Shown here piece after piece: positions 14,948 to 30,314 of a stretch of DNA of 32,000 bases. The stretch lies in contig NC_022359.1 in the NCBI RefSeq assembly GCF_000354175.2, positions 600,001 through 632,000 of the forward strand, in the 5' to 3' direction. This stretch comes from Vibrio alginolyticus NBRC 15630 = ATCC 17749 (lineage in GTDB: Bacteria > Pseudomonadota > Gammaproteobacteria > Enterobacterales > Vibrionaceae). The notes beneath the pieces are model-generated. The model saw only the letters and a program-made list of their open reading frames with translations. It ran no database searches and was not told where the DNA came from. Each line of letters starts with the position of its first letter. The stretch's first letter is position 1. The position numbers were made by a program, and so were the translations under genes.

Positions 14948-15502
14948 GTGACAGAACTAGAAAAAATGATGTCTGGCCAGGTCTTTGATGGCATGGACAA
15001 AGAAATTGACGCCATTAGAAGCCATGCTCTTCAAGCACTTAGAGCACTTAATAATAACACCGACGAAAGTCAGCGCGACGAATTGCAAAAGCAGCTATTT
15101 GGCAAGGTAGGCCGTTGTATTGTCCAGTCCCCTTTTCATTGTGAATTTGGTAAGACCATCGAAATAGGTGAAGAAACCTTTATCAACATGAACGTGGTCA
15201 TGCTCGATGGTGCCAAAATTACCATCGGGAACCACGTGCTCATTGGACCGAGCGTGCAATTTTATACCGCTTCTCATTCTGTTGATTACCGAAGTCGTCG
15301 GCGTTGGGAAACGTTTTGTAAACCTATCACGATTGAAGATGATGTGTGGATTGGCGGAAATTCGGTCATTAACCAAGGTGTGACGATTGGTGCTCGCTCG
15401 GTTATTGCGGCGAACTCGGTAGTCAACCATGATGTGCCGCCAGATTGTCTATACGGAGGCACGCCAGCTAAGTTGATTCGTCGTCTCAACGAAGAAGAGT
15501 AG
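14948..15502 (+). CDS. maa: maltose/sugar O-acetyltransferase (hexapeptide-repeat left-handed beta-helix)
   Basis: VTELEKMMSGQVF aligns with the E. coli Maa N-terminus as I recall it, and hexapeptide repeats fill the C-terminal half. GTG 14948 lies 7 nt after AGGAG (14936-14940), so I prefer it to the track's GTG at 14903. Confidence 0.8.
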   Translation: MTELEKMMSGQVFDGMDKEIDAIRSHALQALRALNNNTDESQRDELQKQLFGKVGRCIVQSPFHCEFGKTIEIGEETFINMNVVMLDGAKITIGNHVLIGPSVQFYTASHSVDYRSRRRWETFCKPITIEDDVWIGGNSVINQGVTIGARSVIAANSVVNHDVPPDCLYGGTPAKLIRRLNEEE

Positions 15503-15589
15503 AGGTTAGTATGCAATAACTCTGGCGATTAGAGAGTTCAGACTGAGCTCTCTTCGTCGAGTACATCGTTATATTTTAATGTTAATTCC

Positions 15590-15970
15590 TCACTCAATTG
15601 CTAAAAGAACGGCACCAATTGATAAAGTCAGGGCAACGACAACAGAGTTAACAATGATAATACCCAGTAATAGAATCGACAAATAACGATACCATTTTGG
15701 TACTTCTCTAGAAATATTAGGTAATTTTCGCTTTTCACCTGAGCTAGGTTGAACGATTAAACGAACAAACATCAATGTTCGGAAAAATGCGTAAGGCCAC
15801 CCTGTGAATAAAGAAAGCTCAAATTCATTAAAATATGGTTTTTTAAAATAGTTCCCAACAATCTCCTTCGGCATCAGAAAGTGCATGACACCGATAGAAA
15901 TGGTTTGTAAGAAAATAATAATCACACCAGTCATTAAAGTGTAAAAAAGAAATGTGATTACTTGCTGCAT
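15590..15970 (-). CDS. small polytopic inner-membrane protein; candidate cognate immunity protein
   Basis: 126 aa with at least 3 hydrophobic helices. Its start overlaps the stop of the upstream 332-aa gene by 13 nt. It is paralogous to 17211-17597. Confidence 0.75.
   Translation of the reverse strand: MQQVITFLFYTLMTGVIIIFLQTISIGVMHFLMPKEIVGNYFKKPYFNEFELSLFTGWPYAFFRTLMFVRLIVQPSSGEKRKLPNISREVPKWYRYLSILLLGIIIVNSVVVALTLSIGAVLLAIE
15737..15805. repeat. 69-nt near-identical block (67/69; 55-nt perfect core at 15745-15799) shared with 17364-17432
   Basis: Direct comparison of the two paralogous genes. The flanking coding sequence is much more diverged. Confidence 0.9.
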
Positions 15971-16956
15971 ATAGACTCTATTCCAGTACTAGCGACTAAG
16001 TTTGGCTTGCTTTCAATTGAATTATAAAAGCTTTTTGCCACTTTACCGGATGCATAACCTACAGCCGTTGAACCGGCAGCGAGTACAATGGCAGTCCCCC
16101 AGCCAATAGGGTTTGATACTAAAAATAGACCGACTAACGCGCTGGTACCCATTCCTACAGCTGTGCTAGTTATTGACTCAACAAAAATTTCATTCTTCTC
16201 ATGTTGGTCTTGTGTATTCGCAATCTGAATGCAGGAAGCCGTCAGACCAACACCGACTAAAACATGTCCGCCCACTTTAGATGCTTGAGCTATTTTATTC
16301 AGTTTTTCGGCTTGTTTAACTATATGAGCATTCGCAGGTAACCCTCCACTTCGAGCTATGCGAATAGACTGGTGAGTCGTTTTGTTGCCAAATAGCAGCT
16401 TTTCCATAGGGCCAACATTTTTCTTTAGTAGGTCTAAATGTTTTTTACGTCGACCATCATATTGTCCTTTACTTATTACTCCGTTTTTATAGTTTGCGTA
16501 AAGGTCGTTGATGTTCTCAATGAGCTTAATATTTCCTTTACTCATCAAGTTCCCTGTAGCACCCATCAAGGTACCTCCTGGAATAGTAATCATATTGGCG
16601 TTGTTTTCCAGCCATGCCAACGCCCAAAACATGTCAGCATGTTGCGGTGGAACTTGATTTGAGATTGATTTTGGAGGTTGATTGTAGCTGAGAAGATTGG
16701 GAGGCAAAACTTTATGGGGAGGAGAGCTGGGCATTTGAGGTTTAGACGCTGGGTAGGTCCCTAGCTTCGCGATACTTTTAGGAGGTAACGCATTGTTACT
16801 TTGAGTTTTAAGTTGAGAGCTTGATTTGGGTAGAGCTGATAACCAAATGATATCGCCTGCTCTAATGCGGTTAGGATCTGAAATATGCTTGTTTAATGTC
16901 ATTATATGAGTCAGTACCATCTGATAGTCCTTGCTACCATATGGAGCACCATACAT
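15958..16956 (-). CDS. LysM-remnant / Pro-rich linker / Gly-Ala-rich hydrophobic C-terminus protein; candidate membrane-pore toxin (colicin- or Tme-like by architecture only)
   Basis: aa 1-42 resemble the distal two-thirds of a LysM domain (YG...ISDPNRIRAGDIIWL). aa 43-106 form a P/S/Q-rich linker. aa 228-246 and 262-304 are Gly/Ala-rich hydrophobic segments (VGGHVLVGVGLTASCIQIA; ITSTAVGMGTSALVGLFLVSNPIGWGTAIVLAAGSTAVGYASG). Confidence 0.65.
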   Translation of the reverse strand: MYGAPYGSKDYQMVLTHIMTLNKHISDPNRIRAGDIIWLSALPKSSSQLKTQSNNALPPKSIAKLGTYPASKPQMPSSPPHKVLPPNLLSYNQPPKSISNQVPPQHADMFWALAWLENNANMITIPGGTLMGATGNLMSKGNIKLIENINDLYANYKNGVISKGQYDGRRKKHLDLLKKNVGPMEKLLFGNKTTHQSIRIARSGGLPANAHIVKQAEKLNKIAQASKVGGHVLVGVGLTASCIQIANTQDQHEKNEIFVESITSTAVGMGTSALVGLFLVSNPIGWGTAIVLAAGSTAVGYASGKVAKSFYNSIESKPNLVASTGIESICSK

Positions 16957-17210
16957 GTTTAATATAATAGGTGATAAGTTATCATGACTTTTATTTTATA
17001 CTTAAAAGATCCCGACACAGAGCACCTCTAGCTAATAATTTATTTGTATAGATATTAACAAGAAACTATATTTAAAAATTTTATTTTTTTGCATTCTAGA
17101 CTTTCATTTTAAAAAGCCATAAATTAGCTGATGTATTTATTATTTGTGTGAAATTCTTAATGTTATTTACATTTAAAGTGTGACATTAGACTTAATTGGA
17201 TAGGTAAAGG

Positions 17211-17597
17211 TCATACATGATCTGCTAATGATAAAAAACCTGCGATAAAAAATACAAGCGCTAACATTGTAGAGTTTATGATAATTACCCATATTAAAAT
17301 GAAGGATAATAGACGGTACCACCTAGGCACCTCTTGGGATACATCGGGTAACTTTCGTTTTTTACCTGAGTTAGGTTGAACGATTAAACGAACAAACATC
17401 AATGTTCGGAAAAATGCGTAAGGCCAACCTGTAAATAGAGCTAGTTCGAAAGTGTTAAAATAAGGTTCTTTAAAGTAGCTATTGACAATGTCTTTTGGCA
17501 TTAAAAGGTGCATGATACCTATAAAGAATGTTTGAAAAAAAATAACTAATACACCAGAGAACATTAAGTATCCAATAATGTTCCAGATCAATTGCAT
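17211..17597 (-). CDS. paralogous small polytopic membrane protein; candidate orphan immunity protein
   Basis: 128 aa. In my ungapped hand alignment, 76 of 126 positions are identical to the 15590-15970 product, including the invariant block LFTGWPYAFFRTLMFVRLIVQP. Confidence 0.75.
   Translation of the reverse strand: MQLIWNIIGYLMFSGVLVIFFQTFFIGIMHLLMPKDIVNSYFKEPYFNTFELALFTGWPYAFFRTLMFVRLIVQPNSGKKRKLPDVSQEVPRWYRLLSFILIWVIIINSTMLALVFFIAGFLSLADHV
17364..17432. repeat. partner copy of the 69-nt block (perfect core 17372-17426)
   Basis: Same comparison as for 15737-15805. Confidence 0.9.
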
Positions 17598-17864
17598 ATT
17601 GCACCTATCCTTATAATAAACCGATGCTTTTTCAAAGGTTTTATCCTAATTTTTATCATGAAGAAATAAAGAGACTAACAGATAACCTATATCTTAGCTA
17701 TGAATGTAAGGGCGTTTTGAAGGAGTGTCGAGAACGAAAATAAGAACTATTTTATTGATTTTTATGTAAATATAGTTGGTCGTGTATAAAATGGATAACG
17801 TGTAATGGCGAGATGTAAGCCTTGCACAACTAACAAAGGTTGGTTAAACAAGGCTAATAGTCGG

Positions 17865-18110
17865 TTATGGATGAATAACGATTTGTTGCTCCTCAGTCAT
17901 CACAAGTGTCGCTTTGCTTTGTTCGATAAGTTGGGCAGCATAAGAAGGGGTAACGGCCTGCATATCACCTTTAGATCGAAGAGTTAAAGACTCCCACGCT
18001 TGATCTCGATATTTCCCTGCTTGGGTGTATTGAATCAGTACTTTCATAGCTTCACGCTCCGGTGTGGTTGACGTGCTACTTAAGTTAACGATCTTAGGTT
18101 GGTTGCGCAT
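17865..18110 (-). CDS. small hypothetical protein (81 aa, or 59 aa from the internal Met)
   Basis: The ORF has normal composition, but no domain is recognised and the start is uncertain. Confidence 0.4.
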   Translation of the reverse strand: MRNQPKIVNLSSTSTTPEREAMKVLIQYTQAGKYRDQAWESLTLRSKGDMQAVTPSYAAQLIEQSKATLVMTEEQQIVIHP

Positions 18111-23666: not shown

Positions 23667-25022
23667 TTAGAAACGGTGGCTGAGTTGGGCACCAATTAGG
23701 AACGCATTTGAATGGGTCACGCCCGTTACCATCGGTGCAGGAACACCTTCATACGCGTACTCTTCTACGTTGACATCTTCACCAATCAAGTACGTCATGC
23801 CGATGTCAACCGTGGTATCTGATGACCATTGGTAAGAGGCACCCGCAGATAACCAGTGACGGTTCGAATCTGGGATAGAAAGCGAAGTCAGCTCATCGAC
23901 AGGTGTTTTGTCGAACATGTAACCCGTGCGTAGTGTCCAACGTTCATTGGCGTACCAAGTCGCACCGATGGAGTAGTGCGCGGAGTCTTGCCACTGAAAA
24001 TCTTTTAGCAACTGATCATCAGCTTTCAAGCTGTCAAATGCTGACCAACCAATCCACTGCACAGAATAGTGCAGGGCAAATTTAGGTAAGACGCGGTGAT
24101 AACCGGAAAACTCCGCAATATCCGGTAGCGGCATAGCAAGCGAGTCGTACGATTCGCCAGCAAAGTGGATGTCGCCCTTGGCATCGATGTTAGGGCTGTG
24201 CTTGTAGCTTAAACCCAAGCGATGACGTTCGTTAAACTCGTACATCATGCCAATATTCGCACCAAGCCCAATGCCGCCAGCTTCCACATCAAGTGCGTTG
24301 CCTTTTACGGATCCACAGCGTTGTTCTAGTTCGTTTCCAAGTATGTTCCCACCAACGCAAACACCCACGTCCATATCGCGGTACAGCTCACCAGAGCCGT
24401 AAATCACATCAATACCACCACCAATACTAAAACGGTCGTTCACCTTGTATGCCAAGCTTGCGCCAAGGTTGACACTCGCTACGCTGGTGACACCGCCAAA
24501 AACAGGTGCGCCATAGTTTGGTTTAAACTCCATGTCGGTTCCGAAGTTGGAGTATGCCGATAAGCCTAGATACCAGTCGTCGTTGATAGGGTGAATAAAG
24601 TAAAAATTGGGTACAACGGCTGGTTGACCAACGCCATCGACGTCATCAATATCGGTCACGGTTTGAGAGAAGGACGGGGTAATGTCAACTTGAGGGGACG
24701 GAGGAAAACCGCCCATACCAACATTGACATCCGCATTAATGTTAGCTCGATGATATTGCGCATTTTTAACGGTAACGTCAGGTTTGACGTAAGTGACACC
24801 GAACGATAAGGCATTTTGTTTAAACAGCGTCATCGCTGCGGCGTTGCGGCTGACTACAGACGCATTATCACCAATAACAGCATCACCAGCAAAAGCACGA
24901 CCAAGACCCGTCGCCGAATGTTCGTTAATTTGAAAACCACCGGCATACGCCGTCGATGAGGCTAAACCGATTAATAAATAAATCGGTGAAAGAGTGAATT
25001 GTCGCTGCATGTTTTTTCTCAT
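23667..25022 (-). CDS. fadL: FadL/TodX-family outer-membrane long-chain fatty acid / hydrophobic compound channel
   Basis: Signal peptide followed by GGFQINEHSATGLGRAFAG, which is typical of the FadL N-terminus. A beta-barrel-like alternating pattern runs through the protein, and it ends in a C-terminal Phe. Confidence 0.85.
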   Translation of the reverse strand: MRKNMQRQFTLSPIYLLIGLASSTAYAGGFQINEHSATGLGRAFAGDAVIGDNASVVSRNAAAMTLFKQNALSFGVTYVKPDVTVKNAQYHRANINADVNVGMGGFPPSPQVDITPSFSQTVTDIDDVDGVGQPAVVPNFYFIHPINDDWYLGLSAYSNFGTDMEFKPNYGAPVFGGVTSVASVNLGASLAYKVNDRFSIGGGIDVIYGSGELYRDMDVGVCVGGNILGNELEQRCGSVKGNALDVEAGGIGLGANIGMMYEFNERHRLGLSYKHSPNIDAKGDIHFAGESYDSLAMPLPDIAEFSGYHRVLPKFALHYSVQWIGWSAFDSLKADDQLLKDFQWQDSAHYSIGATWYANERWTLRTGYMFDKTPVDELTSLSIPDSNRHWLSAGASYQWSSDTTVDIGMTYLIGEDVNVEEYAYEGVPAPMVTGVTHSNAFLIGAQLSHRF

Positions 25023-25384
25023 GAATTAATTAGAGATTGTATTGCAACGAAAAGCAGTAAAATAAACAAATCTGACCAGTATATTTAGGAGTAAAACTAA
25101 CAGTATGTTGACAATAAATAAATTTAACTTAATAAATATTTATTGATGAATTTATTAAGGGTTCATGTCGTGAATGTGGTGATTATTTTACGTGTAAATT
25201 AAACTCAGAGCCTCTACTTTTATTTTTGCGGTATTACTTCTCTATTTTTATTGTGCTGACTGTTCCCTAACAAACAGAGGTAAATCCAGCGATAAAGTGT
25301 TCGTGATGGAAACTCTGAGTCATTTGTATTTCCATTGCATCCCAACGTTGGTAGTTCGAATCAGCAAGAGAACTATCGTTTTAA

Positions 25385-25437
25385 ACCCACATGACACACT
25401 CCTCTCGGTCTTACCTGTGTTATGTGGGTATTTTTTA
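25385..25437 (+). terminator. strong orphan plus-strand rho-independent terminator in the fadL-macA intergenic region
   Basis: A 14-bp stem ACCCACATGACACA (25385-25398) pairs with TGTGTTATGTGGGT (25416-25429), with one G-U pair. The loop is 17 nt. The hairpin is followed by A-TTTTTT-ATTT. The minus-strand reading lacks a T-tail. Confidence 0.65.
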
Positions 25438-25781
25438 TTTAACTTGCCACTTAACTCCTCTTTAAATTCAATCATCAAAATGACCATAATGAAATTTAAA
25501 TGGATGGCATATTGAATAAGCTTAGATTTTACTGGTTTGTTGGTATTTAAAAGTTTTGTTTATAATACTTATAACTTGAATTTCTATATTAAAAATGATC
25601 TTTGTTATATTTATTGAATGATAAAGTTTTGAAGTGACTATAATATCTCGGATTTTTCACGTTAGTGAAGTTATTCCTTCAGTATCTTGACGTTAATTTA
25701 CCTATCTTTACGTCTCGTACCCTGTACGGCTAAGACAAATAGCAGTATAAAATCAAAACGATTATTTACTTCACTCCTGCT

Positions 25782-26957
25782 ATGAAACTCAATAAAAAAT
25801 GGCTCGTTTTGTGTAGCCTACTTGCTATTGGTGCTGGTGGTTATCATTATCTGCAACGTCCAGAACCCATTTTTTCTTACGCGACAGAAGTCGTTCGCAA
25901 AGGCAATATCGAAAAGGCGGTATTAGCCAACGGCATGTTGCAAGCGTCCAAATTGGTGAATGTAGGTGCGCAAGTATCTGGGCAAATTCAACGCCTCGCT
26001 GTGAACTTAGGGGATGAGATCAAACAGGGGGACTTGATTGCACAGATTGACAGCCTGACTCAGCAAAACAGCCTCAAAGAAGCCCAAGCGTCTCTTAATA
26101 GTCTCAACGCTCAGTACCAGGCTAAGCAAGCGCAGATTAAACAAGCAAACTATGAATACGTGCGCCAAAAAGGCATGTTGGCAGCGAAAGCGAGCTCACG
26201 AGCTGATTACGAGAATGCCGAAGCGACGCTCGCCATCTACAAAGCCGAGTTAGCGCAACTGGATGCCGAAATCGAGAAAGCCAAAATCAACGTCGACAAT
26301 GCGCAGTTAGATCTCGGTTACACCACCATCAACGCACCGATGGATGGCACGGTGGTCTACACCGCGGTGGAAGAAGGACAAACCGTAAACGCCAATCAAA
26401 CCACGCCAACTATTATCGAGTTAGCCAAGTTAGATACGATGACGGTGAAAGCCGAAATTTCGGAAGCCGATGTGATTTTTGTTCACCCAGGCCAAACGGC
26501 GCTGTTCACCATTTTAGGCAAACCGAATCAGCAGTTTAAAGGCACATTGCGCGCCATTGAGCCGGGGCCAACCATCATGGATGGCGATGACAGCGATTTG
26601 AGCATTTCAGATAGCGACGCCATTTACTACAACGCTGTATTTGATGTGAAGAACCCGCAAGGTATTTTGCGCATCGGCATGACTGCGCAAGTTTCGATTG
26701 TCCTTGAGCAATCGGAAAATACCTTGATTGTCCCTTCACAAGTCCTGCAAAAATCTGGCGGCAAAGGCAACTATACCGTGCCAGTGCTTGAACAGGGCCA
26801 AGTGGTGCAAAAGCCCGTGACAGTGGGTATCAACAACAAAGTGAACGCAGAAATTCTCTCAGGTTTGAAGGAAGGCGACCAAGTTGTTCTTGGCAATGCT
26901 ATGGATGGAGAATCATCAAGCCGAGGTGATCGTCGTCGACCTCCAATGAGGTTCTAA
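25782..26957 (+). CDS. macA: MacA-type periplasmic adaptor (HlyD/MFP family)
   Basis: N-terminal TM anchor, coiled-coil hairpin, lipoyl/beta-barrel motifs ([10 protein letters not shown]), and 1-nt spacing to the macB-like gene. Confidence 0.85.
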
Positions 26958-26958
26958 G

Positions 26959-28923
26959 ATGAGTGACGTGCTTTTAAAAGTTGAGGATTTAACTCGACGT
27001 TTCGTCTCTGGAGACGAGTCGCTTACCGTGTTGAACCACATTAATTTAGAGATAAAACGCGGTGAAATGGTCGCGATCGTGGGTGCATCAGGCTCAGGTA
27101 AATCGACGCTGATGAATGTGCTCGGCTGCTTGGATAAACCGTCCAGCGGTCGATACTTCATTAATGGGCAAGATGTCTCGACGTTGGAATCTGATCAACT
27201 GGCGGAACTGCGCCGCGAGTATTTTGGCTTTATATTCCAGCGTTACCATTTGCTGGGGGACTTAACCGCGGTGGCAAACGTGGAAGTACCTGCGGTTTAC
27301 GCGGGAGTTCCTCATCGTCAAAGAACGGAGCGAGCGCAGTCGTTATTGGCTCGCTTAGGGCTGGAAGATCGTTTGACTCACAAGCCCAGCCAGCTGAGTG
27401 GTGGCCAGCAACAGCGCGTGAGTGTTGCTCGTGCACTGATGAACGGTGGTGAGGTGATTCTCGCTGATGAGCCCACTGGTGCATTAGACAGTCACAGCGG
27501 GCAAGAGATGATGGCACTTCTTAGAGAGTTACATCAACTTGGGCATACGATCATCATAGTGACTCATGATATGAACGTGGCGAACTTTGCGGATCGCATC
27601 ATTGAAATCAAAGATGGTGAAATCATTGCAGATACGCCAAATGCACAAGTTGTAATCAATGAGCAAGCAGCAAAGACACCGAGCGCGTCTTTTCATCGCC
27701 CAGCGCAAGCCGCCAGTAAGTGGTGGAAGTGGGACAGTTTTATTGACGCGCTCAAAATGGCGCTGCTAGCGATGTCTAGCCACAGAATGCGCACGTTTTT
27801 GACCATGCTCGGCATCATTATTGGTATAGCCTCGGTGGTTTCCGTGGTGGCACTAGGTAATGGTTCACAACAGCAAATTTTGTCGAATATTTCATCCATG
27901 GGAACAAACACCATTGATGTCAGGCCGGGCAAAGGGTTTGGTGACCGCCGCTCCGGACGAGTGAAAACGCTAACCGCCGACGATGCTAAATCGTTGGAGA
28001 GTCTACCTTTTGTCGACAGTGTCACGCCGTCTTTATCCAACAGCTTAACCGTGCGTTACGCCAATCAGGATGCAACCGCGTCTGTGGAAGGGGTTGGGGA
28101 AGATTATTTCCGTGTGCGCGGTTATGAGATCGCCAAAGGTCAGTTTTGGGATGAAGAGAGCGTGAACTCACTCGCCCAAGAAGCAGTGATTGATGACAAC
28201 ACCAGAAAGGAAATGTTTGCGGATAGAAATCCTATTGGTGAAGTGATTTTTCTTGGTTCATTGCCAGTGCGTATTGTGGGTGTCACGCAGAAAAAAGAAG
28301 ACGCGTTTGGCAACAGCGACGCGCTGAAAATTTGGGTGCCATACACCACCATGTCGGGACGAATGATGGGACAACGCTACCTCAACGGCATTACTGTACG
28401 GATTGATGAGAACGCCCCAAGCGCAGCGGTAGAACAGAGCATCATCAACTTGTTAAAAATGCGCCACGGTACAGAAGATTTCTTCACGATTAACACTGAC
28501 ACCATTCGTCAGAGCATCGAGAAAACCACCGCAACCATGACGTTACTGATCTCAGCGATTGCGGTGATCTCCCTAATTGTCGGGGGAATTGGCGTAATGA
28601 ACATCATGTTGGTGTCGGTGACAGAGCGCACGAAAGAGATCGGTGTGCGAATGGCTGTGGGTGCGCGGCAAGCGGATATTTTGCGTCAGTTTTTGATTGA
28701 AGCGGTACTAGTGTGTTTGTGTGGTGGCATTGCTGGTATTGGCTTGGCGTTTTTGATTGGTTTTGCATTCAGTACATCTGGCAGCAGCTTCCAAATGATT
28801 TACTCGATGAACTCGATCATCTGGGCGTTTATTTGCTCAACGTTGATTGGCATCGCTTTCGGCTTTTTACCTGCTCGTAATGCCGCCAAACTCGATCCGA
28901 TAGAAGCGCTAGCGAGAGACTAA
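26959..28923 (+). CDS. macB: MacB-type ABC transporter (fused ATPase + FtsX-like permease)
   Basis: Walker [10 protein letters not shown], signature LSGGQQQR, Walker B ILADEPT, then a 4-TM permease with a large periplasmic loop. Confidence 0.9.
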
Positions 28924-28925
28924 AA

Positions 28926-30314
28926 ATGAGTAACACAATGAAATTCAAAACTCGATTGGTCGCGGCTGCCTTAAGTGCAGTGTGGTTGTCAGGTTGTGGG
29001 TCGCTTATGCGTAGTGACTATCAAGCTCCTGAGGTGCAAGTGCCTGCAAATTGGCAACAGATGCATGTTGCGGGTGATGTCAGTATGGATCCTTGGTGGT
29101 TGGCGTTTAACGACCCAACGCTTAATCAATACATTACTCAGGTGTTGGCTCAAAACAACGATTTGACGCTGGCAACGCTAACGCTAAAGAAAGCGCGTTT
29201 ACAGCTGGGTTTAGCGCAAGATGACCTTTTCCCTACGTTGAGTTCTTCCACATCAGGACAAGTTCAAAAATCTCTTGATAGCGGGGAATCGGCAGATAGC
29301 TACAGCACTAACTTGTCCGTCAATTACGAGTTGGATTTGTGGGGAAAAATCTCGGCAGACGTTGACCAAGCCAAGTGGACGGCGATGGCAAGTCAACAAG
29401 ATCGCGAGGCGACCGCACAAAGTTTGGTGGCAACGACGGCATCGTTATATTGGCAAATCGGCTATCTGAAACAGCGCTTAAACCTCAGTCAGCGTAATGT
29501 GGCAGACGCAGCTCAAACGCTACAATTGATTGAAAAACAGTACCAACTTGGCGCTGTGGATCAGTTAGATGTGCTTGAAGCCAAACGTACGTTGGCAAGC
29601 TTACAAGCGCAGCAAAGTGAGTTTGAACAGAGTTTACTTGAGGCAAACAACGCCTTTGCGATTTTGTTCAATCAACCGCCGAAGAGCATTAGTGTAAACA
29701 TCCAAATGCTGCCTGAAGGCGATATGCCATCGTTGAGTGTTGGTGCTCCGTCTGATTTATTGATCCGCAGACCCGACATTAAAGCAGCGATTTATGAAGT
29801 CAAAGCCGCGCTAGCAAATAAAGACGCAGCAGATTTGGACTACTTGCCCAAGCTGACGCTCACTGGGGCTCTGGGTGGATCATCACAAGCGCTTAAAGAC
29901 CTGCTTTCCAACCCGATTGGCAGCTTAGGTGCGGATATGACGCTACCGTTTTTGCAGTGGAATGAGATGAAAAACAGCCAAGCCATTGCCGATTTAGACT
30001 ATCAATCGGCCATTGTGAGCTATCGCCAAGTGTTGTACGCCGCCTTCCAAGATGTCGAAAATGCCTTGTCAGCACGAGAAAAATTGAAGTATCAAGCGGC
30101 GCGTTTACAAGAACAATATGATGCCGCAAGTGCCGCTGAGTCCATTTATGCTGCGCGGTATCAGTATGGCTCGACATCGATCATGGACTATTTGAATGCC
30201 CAAGAAGACACCAGAAACGCACAAGCTTCTTTGTTGGAGAACCGCTACAACCAGTTTCTCACTCAGGTTACGCTTTACCAGTCTTTAGGAGGAACCGACG
30301 TTGCGCCGTTGTAA
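28926..30314 (+). CDS. NodT/OprM-family outer-membrane efflux lipoprotein
   Basis: Lipobox LSGC, two OEP repeats, and tight coupling to the macB stop codon. Confidence 0.85.
   Translation: MSNTMKFKTRLVAAALSAVWLSGCGSLMRSDYQAPEVQVPANWQQMHVAGDVSMDPWWLAFNDPTLNQYITQVLAQNNDLTLATLTLKKARLQLGLAQDDLFPTLSSSTSGQVQKSLDSGESADSYSTNLSVNYELDLWGKISADVDQAKWTAMASQQDREATAQSLVATTASLYWQIGYLKQRLNLSQRNVADAAQTLQLIEKQYQLGAVDQLDVLEAKRTLASLQAQQSEFEQSLLEANNAFAILFNQPPKSISVNIQMLPEGDMPSLSVGAPSDLLIRRPDIKAAIYEVKAALANKDAADLDYLPKLTLTGALGGSSQALKDLLSNPIGSLGADMTLPFLQWNEMKNSQAIADLDYQSAIVSYRQVLYAAFQDVENALSAREKLKYQAARLQEQYDAASAAESIYAARYQYGSTSIMDYLNAQEDTRNAQASLLENRYNQFLTQVTLYQSLGGTDVAPL

Follow-up and report, generated by a model that had tools for sequence, protein, structure and literature searches.

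Among described systems, the one closest to the locus analysed here is the Va03170/Va03175/Va03180 module of Vibrio alginolyticus 12G01, an effector of type VI secretion system 2 (T6SS2) with its immunity proteins (Salomon et al. 2015, PLoS Pathog 11:e1005128, PMC4549250). We compare it with three minus-strand genes in a 32,000-nucleotide (nt) stretch of V. alginolyticus NBRC 15630 = ATCC 17749 (NC_022359.1, positions 600,001 to 632,000; called the window), which encode a protein of 332 amino acids (aa) and two small membrane proteins of 128 and 126 aa. In the 2015 study Va03175 was recovered in the VaT6SS2 secretome with mean spectral counts of 0 (T6SS2-) versus 10.3 (T6SS2+), and was annotated as 'LysM, pore-forming' and colicin-like via HHpred. 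Prey deleted for va03175-80 were not killed by the wild type. Directly upstream of Va03175 lies Va03170, a 65%-identical homolog of Va03180, and prey deleted for va03170-80 were killed by the wild type; for this killing the attacker needed both hcp2 and the effector. Immunity was restored by plasmid-borne Va03170 or Va03180, either alone (all PMC4549250, Table 1 and Fig 2). In the literature searched for later work, Va03175 is named only in the 2015 paper.

Three further groups of toxins invite comparison. TseVF-TsiVF of V. fluvialis VflT6SS2 resembles the locus in its signal-less N-terminal LysM (TseVF residues 1-59) and in a membrane-damaging C-terminal toxin followed by a downstream immunity gene, but TseVF has 1197 aa and is encoded together with hcp, vgrG and a Tap chaperone, whereas Va03175 has 353 aa and lies in an orphan cassette (PMC12861213). 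Tme/Tmi pairs (Fridman et al. 2020, PMC7046647) likewise combine a T6SS-delivered, membrane-disrupting C-terminus with a downstream, signal-less immunity protein with several transmembrane segments. About 70% of Tme genes adjoin T6SS genes, whereas the Va03175 family does not, and Tmi proteins are DUF1240 or DUF1240-like, whereas a Pfam search of either small protein of the window returned no family at E<=1; on this ground membership in Tme/Tmi was rejected, and the Tme likeness drawn in the initial annotation of the window, made from the letters alone, is not supported. Pore-forming colicins share a helical C-terminal domain of ~200 aa with a Gly/Ala-rich hairpin near the C-terminus, and a small membrane-embedded immunity protein. 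They differ in that the effector has an extra hydrophobic helix before the hairpin, in that the immunity gene here is co-directional and overlapping while it is convergent in ColE1, and in the route of entry, which is T6SS delivery for Va03175 and receptor binding with Tol/Ton import for colicins.

Orthology with the 12G01 module and the effector allele

Judged by sequence and gene order, the locus lies on V. alginolyticus chromosome 2 and is very probably orthologous to Va03170/Va03175/Va03180, the T6SS2 effector-immunity module. The 12G01 scaffold (L071, GCA_000153505.1) carries the same three genes in the same order and with the same neighbours: a WYL/YafY regulator and an open reading frame (ORF) of 81 aa flank them at one end, maa, osmC and msrAB at the other. 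The region is 98.1% identical at the nucleotide level over 2.9 kb, and identical residues number 125/128 for Va03170, 331/332 for Va03175 and 125/126 for Va03180 (97.7-99.7%). All three window proteins are exact matches to V. alginolyticus AGV19454.1-AGV19456.1, and EAS77428.1 (V12G01_03170, V. alginolyticus 12G01) falls into the same 90% cluster as the 128-aa protein. The two loci are alike in species, chromosomal slot, gene order and overlaps; they differ in the effector, which in 12G01 is intact, with 353 aa and a complete LysM, whereas the window allele lacks residues 1-21.

The system is already known: work on the same species identified it in 2015 and validated it genetically, and the proposal of an undescribed system falls away (PMC4549250). 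The arrangement read in the initial annotation, in which a toxin aimed at membranes is coupled to an immunity gene downstream and joined by an additional immunity paralog, is established for the near-identical 12G01 locus (PMC4549250). It had left the secretion route open and had regarded the upstream copy as a diverged orphan; the experiments in 12G01 settle the former as T6SS2, through T6SS2-dependent secretion and hcp2-dependent killing, and identify the latter as a working redundant immunity gene (PMC4549250). The features of the locus are as follows, with the basis of each in brackets.

15503-17871, minus strand: low-GC (guanine-cytosine) accessory islet with all three genes (blastn of L066 against L065)
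17597-17211, minus strand: upstream small gene, ortholog of Va03170, predicted immunity and inner-membrane protein, 128 aa (ORF list and orthology)
17019-17210, minus strand: AT-rich intergenic region, ~23% GC, upstream of the original effector start (sequence and GC)
16959-17018, minus strand: displaced 5' end of the effector gene, GTG, 19 codons VSGSFKYKIKVMITYHLLY, TAA (alignment with the intact alleles L055 and L071-L076)
16956-15958, minus strand: effector ORF, 332 aa, ortholog of Va03175 residues 22-353 (331/332 identity)
16831-16956, minus strand: LysM remnant (weak Pfam LysM match)
16639-16830, minus strand: linker rich in Pro, Ser and Gln (composition)
16276-16638, minus strand: helical region (hydropathy and layout)
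16219-16275, minus strand: hydrophobic helix (hydropathy)
16045-16173, minus strand: hydrophobic hairpin with an NPIGWG turn (hydropathy)
C-terminal of the hairpin, minus strand: effector tail with a conserved Cys (family alignments)
15970-15590, minus strand: downstream small gene, ortholog of Va03180, predicted immunity protein, 126 aa (ORF list and orthology)

The three minus-strand ORFs, their coordinates and their lengths were read correctly at the outset according to the ORF list, as were the 13-nt overlap between the effector stop and the start of the downstream small gene (15958-15970) and the AT-rich gap of 254 nt between the upstream small gene and the 332-aa ORF (16957-17210, GC 23.6%). 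The gap is AT-rich as described, but it is not wholly intergenic: ~62 nt of it belong to the start of the effector gene, which has been shifted out of frame. In comparison with intact alleles, a 1-nt deletion is present at ~16988 (codon 11; 73 nt here versus 74 nt). The original start is the GTG at 17018, just before which an AGAGG Shine-Dalgarno-like sequence closes the intergenic region; the displaced frame ends at the TAA at 16961-16959, and 2 nt after this stop the in-frame ATG at 16956 opens the 332-codon frame. A promoter and terminator scan gave matches no commoner than in shuffled sequence. The intact effector, found in 12G01 and five other assemblies, starts with GTG, has 353 aa and begins VSGLFEYKIKTHDNLSSIILNMYG, a sequence that makes up the opening strand and helix of LysM; the frameshift removes the first 21 residues and with them half of this domain.

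The deletion allele is common to the window, L066 and L068 and comes with several extra substitutions that cluster within the 5' 60 nt. The deletion recurs in independent assemblies and is therefore an allele of the lineage, not an error of the reads. L066 (GCA_024743675.1) is 99.995% identical to the window over 18.4 kb. The other 332 codons are essentially unchanged and both immunity ORFs are intact in the window. From the sequence, this strain would make either a LysM-truncated effector by termination-reinitiation or no effector. A separate lesion was observed in V. diabolicus L056 (L056:7180-7990, chromosome 2), in which an independent TCG->TAG change affects codon 2 and both immunity-like genes are kept.

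Protein architecture and proposed mechanism

The modular layout first assigned to the 332-aa protein is borne out by hydropathy and composition as far as the linker, the helical region and the two hydrophobic segments are concerned. The linker covers aa 43-106, with Pro, Ser and Gln making up 48%, and the Gly/Ala-rich hydrophobic segments cover aa 228-246 and ~261-304, with 32-35% Gly+Ala. The LysM-like piece is a weak LysM match at aa 9-39, truncated by the frameshift: it spans profile positions 14-42 of 43 and scores 18.0 bits, below the Pfam cut-off of 20.9. Intact alleles and homologs possess a complete LysM (precomputed PF01476 matches; PDB LysM matches with E 1e-4). In the AlphaFold2 model of a full-length homolog, residues 1-60 have a local confidence score (pLDDT) of 84-95, with values above 90 for LysM, the linker is disordered and the remainder is helical. 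No signal peptide was found on the effector, and, as noted early on, MIX, PAAR, VgrG and Rhs features are absent from its Pfam matches. An NCBIfam search likewise gave no meaningful match. Two cysteines are unchanged in every alignment of the family: C242 (nt 16231-16233) lies in the first hydrophobic helix, and C330 (nt 15967-15969) is 3 residues away from the C-terminal end. This suggests a disulfide or another conserved role for the pair.

The two small proteins of the window are paralogs, as had been proposed, with 62% identity over 122 aa (E 3e-59). Each has strong hydrophobic segments at aa ~1-35 and ~93-126/128, and their conserved, positively charged middle region separates these two; the description as polytopic is upheld for the two strong segments, while the central one is weaker in hydropathy.

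In the mechanism that we propose, the toxin would reach the prey periplasm by T6SS2, the export step having been shown for 12G01. Its C-terminal helical domain would then enter the inner membrane with the Gly/Ala-rich hairpin (NPIGWG turn) and the hydrophobic helix before it, and would dissipate the membrane potential, as colicin pore domains do. The small proteins, predicted to reside in that membrane, would neutralise the toxin on the spot, and the N-terminal LysM may either bind peptidoglycan or help loading onto the T6SS2 spike.

The family outside Vibrio and the setting of the islet

More than 130 homologs share 42-55% identity with the effector; most come from uncultured marine Gammaproteobacteria, and their annotation reads 'glycine zipper family protein' or 'LysM domain-containing protein'. 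When each species was represented by one genome, the scan yielded 49 loci, whose carriers include Cellvibrionaceae, Thiotrichaceae, Thalassolituus, Saccharophagus, Caldimonas, Roseibium and Tropicibacter. In nearly every locus with enough contig (~50 loci outside the genus Vibrio) a small-gene homolog stands downstream of the large gene, and the two usually overlap. Two kinds of array were seen. In one, a full toxin gene and a small gene are followed by a C-terminal toxin fragment (46-184 aa, 70-92% identical to the full copy) with a small gene of its own (L022:2619-5076, L032:7968-10333, L038:7956-10288, L026:7891-9943, L015 and L030). In the other, a full toxin gene is followed by two or three small genes with 40-92% mutual identity, extra immunity genes of this kind being present in L018, L023, L048, L052 and L041; in the window, the extra copy lies upstream. 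Such arrays of orphan toxin tips and spare immunity genes are a pattern typical of interbacterial toxin loci.

The hallmarks of polymorphic toxins are present in part: relatives carry arrays of orphan C-terminal fragments with their own immunity genes, as polymorphic toxins do, but the toxin domain is not fused to varied carriers. When 1.84 billion representative proteins were searched by phmmer with the C-terminal 226 aa, 228 matches were returned; the best 150 of these are all <=391 aa with the toxin domain at the C-terminus, and shuffling among varied carriers was not seen in them. By these sequence comparisons the family keeps one fixed architecture and is widespread in marine proteobacteria.

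Gene neighbourhoods were covered by a census of 280 flanking proteins from ~45 non-Vibrio loci and of 20 targeted neighbours. The one exception to its overall picture (see below), and the only T6SS-adjacent member seen, is a distant homolog of Tropicibacter alexandrii (L053:993-8975; hmmsearch E 4e-29), which lies directly downstream of tssF, tssG, a ClpV-like ATPase gene and a 208-aa ORF; no small-gene homolog follows it. Thalassolituus marinus (L041:7971-12249) has a convergent pair of toxin-immunity modules, one containing three immunity-like genes and the other two, beside the R subunit gene of a type I restriction enzyme. In L035 (8468-9325), a single ORF of 285 aa is matched by the immunity profile as well as by the toxin C-terminus and is probably a fusion or frameshift artefact of a metagenome-assembled genome.

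Within V. alginolyticus, the three genes form a 2.37-kb GC trough (GC 0.361 versus 0.46 in the flanks). The edges of this islet, placed by blastn comparison of the strains L066 and L065, lie at 15502/15503 (the maa stop codon) and at 17871/17872 (inside the 60/81-aa ORF), and a search of the junctions for flanking repeats or att sites found none besides the two paralogous immunity genes. The proposed survey of the islet across related genomes bore fruit: the three genes co-occur in 12G01, and elsewhere the site alternates with an M66-peptidase cassette. This alternative occupant is 6.45 kb long (L065:10083-16531; also L057-L064) and encodes proteins of 77 aa, 289 aa and 1372 aa (Peptidase_M66-like); no toxin or immunity gene remnant was detected in it. 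The ORF that straddles the right islet edge (17865-18110, 81 aa) has no family match and is called as 60 or 81 aa depending on the assembly. Elsewhere in the window, a second GC trough (0.34) is found at 25000-26000, upstream of a MacA/MacB/TolC-like efflux operon (25782-30314) that encodes HlyD-family, MacB_PCD/FtsX ATP-binding cassette transporter and OEP proteins.

Weighing of the readings

The resemblance to colicins was examined with a pore-domain profile of nine sequences from plasmid records (colicins E1, K, Ia, Ib, B and S4 and three colicin-like proteins). Alignment of the effector-family alignment A5 with this profile by hhalign gave a probability of 75.9% (E 2.3e-5) over 130 columns that run in the same order, including the hairpin, where PIGWGTAIV of the effector family is paired with LGIWGIAIV of the colicins; with alignment A2 the probability was 60.5%, and against the single colicin E1 sequence 9.9%. 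The likeness to a colicin hairpin that had been noted by eye agrees with the 2015 HHpred call and is weakly reproduced by hhalign (76%), but it finds no support from HMMER or from fold comparison.

Several results weigh against the picture of a working, T6SS2-delivered, colicin-like module in this strain. Pfam Colicin (PF01024) had no match at E<=1 to the window protein or to 15 C-terminal homologs, profile-HMM (hidden Markov model) searches of the PDB returned no colicin at E<=10, and Foldseek with two AlphaFold2 models, which are helical with low confidence in the hydrophobic region, found no fold match. The colicin E1 immunity protein (Cei) aligned to the small proteins (alignment A1) with an hhalign probability of 0.2%. 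The 2015 label came from HHpred, from which pore formation by Va03175 was inferred; 'colicin-like' is a plausible but unproven description. No T6SS genes were found within the 32-kb window, and the neighbour census showed no recurrent T6SS or other secretion family, the flanking genes being heterogeneous; because no T6SS gene lies in the window and none recurs beside homologs elsewhere, the link of T6SS2 to the locus of this strain is one of orthology. The window without T6SS genes fits the 2015 report of a pair encoded outside the T6SS2 cluster. Finally, the frameshift may leave the effector non-functional here.

The toxin might instead form a glycine-zipper channel of the Tse4/Ssp6 kind or disrupt the bilayer in a general manner, the colicin likeness being a convergence of hydrophobic composition. 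The missing colicin signal at the HMMER and fold levels speaks for this, together with the family name at NCBI ('glycine zipper family protein'), the 32-35% Gly+Ala of the hydrophobic segments and the pairing in hhalign of the first hydrophobic helix with amphipathic, not hydrophobic, colicin helices. However, hhalign pairs 130 columns in the same order with hairpin and turn included, the 2015 authors' HHpred arrived independently at the colicin call (PMC4549250), and the Pfam glycine-zipper families have no match either, so that we consider this possible but rather unlikely. The state of the effector gene raises a more serious alternative, which we hold to be well within reach though somewhat doubtful: in this lineage the effector may be a pseudogene and the islet a double-immunity island against neighbours that fire intact Va03175. 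Besides the codon-11 deletion with its clustered substitutions, the independent TAG at codon 2 in V. diabolicus L056 and the intactness of both immunity ORFs, other Vibrio entries annotated below 353 aa (P0002 with 297 aa and P0004 with 245 aa) agree with such a decay. Yet the remaining 332 codons are open and encode a protein 331/332 identical to the functional one, which means that no further decay has occurred; the ATG 2 nt past the stop is a layout that permits termination-reinitiation; and LysM is dispensable for toxicity in TseVF, another Vibrio T6SS effector (PMC12861213).

Two readings without an exported toxin are far less probable. An intracellular toxin-antitoxin or abortive-infection module, with a membrane toxin and a small membrane antitoxin, would explain why the effector has no signal peptide and why no secretion genes adjoin the module in ~45 loci, and some islets do lie in variable regions near restriction-modification, toxin-antitoxin and retron-like genes. 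T6SS2-dependent secretion and hcp2-dependent intercellular killing shown for the ortholog (PMC4549250) contradict it, arrays in which orphan toxin fragments accompany immunity genes are characteristic of interbacterial toxins, and the PADLOC anti-phage search was devoid of a meaningful match: it gave a marginal LeoBC match only (E 6.5e-4, a 60-aa hydrophobic stretch) and none for the small proteins. We regard this reading as very improbable, and we give still less credit to a non-toxic envelope protein, anchored to peptidoglycan by LysM and to the membrane by its tail, with a membrane partner. The combination of LysM with C-terminal membrane segments and the two invariant cysteines, which could form a periplasmic disulfide, would suit such a protein, but killing and immunity phenotypes were demonstrated in 12G01 (PMC4549250), and the genes are accessory and patchy and are replaced by a different cassette in sister strains.

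For the annotation of V. alginolyticus genomes, orthology with the 12G01 module means that the genes now labelled 'hypothetical' or 'glycine zipper family' should take the names Va03175, Va03170 and Va03180. The residual interest of the locus lies in the frameshift allele, in the alternative cassette at the same site and in an array-forming family of fixed architecture outside Vibrio. The arrangement of LysM, linker and toxin occurs with no T6SS neighbours at ~45 loci of marine Gamma-, Beta- and Alphaproteobacteria. It is conceivable, if speculative, that proteins of this build constitute a T6SS cargo class of their own, in which the signal-less LysM would be the loading or delivery determinant, as MIX, FIX and RIX are; the window allele would then be a naturally disarmed effector kept with two immunity genes. 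Alternatively, the toxin may be delivered without a T6SS in some lineages. If LysM proves to be required, the frameshift allele would serve as a natural experiment on what the N-terminal LysM contributes to T6SS delivery.

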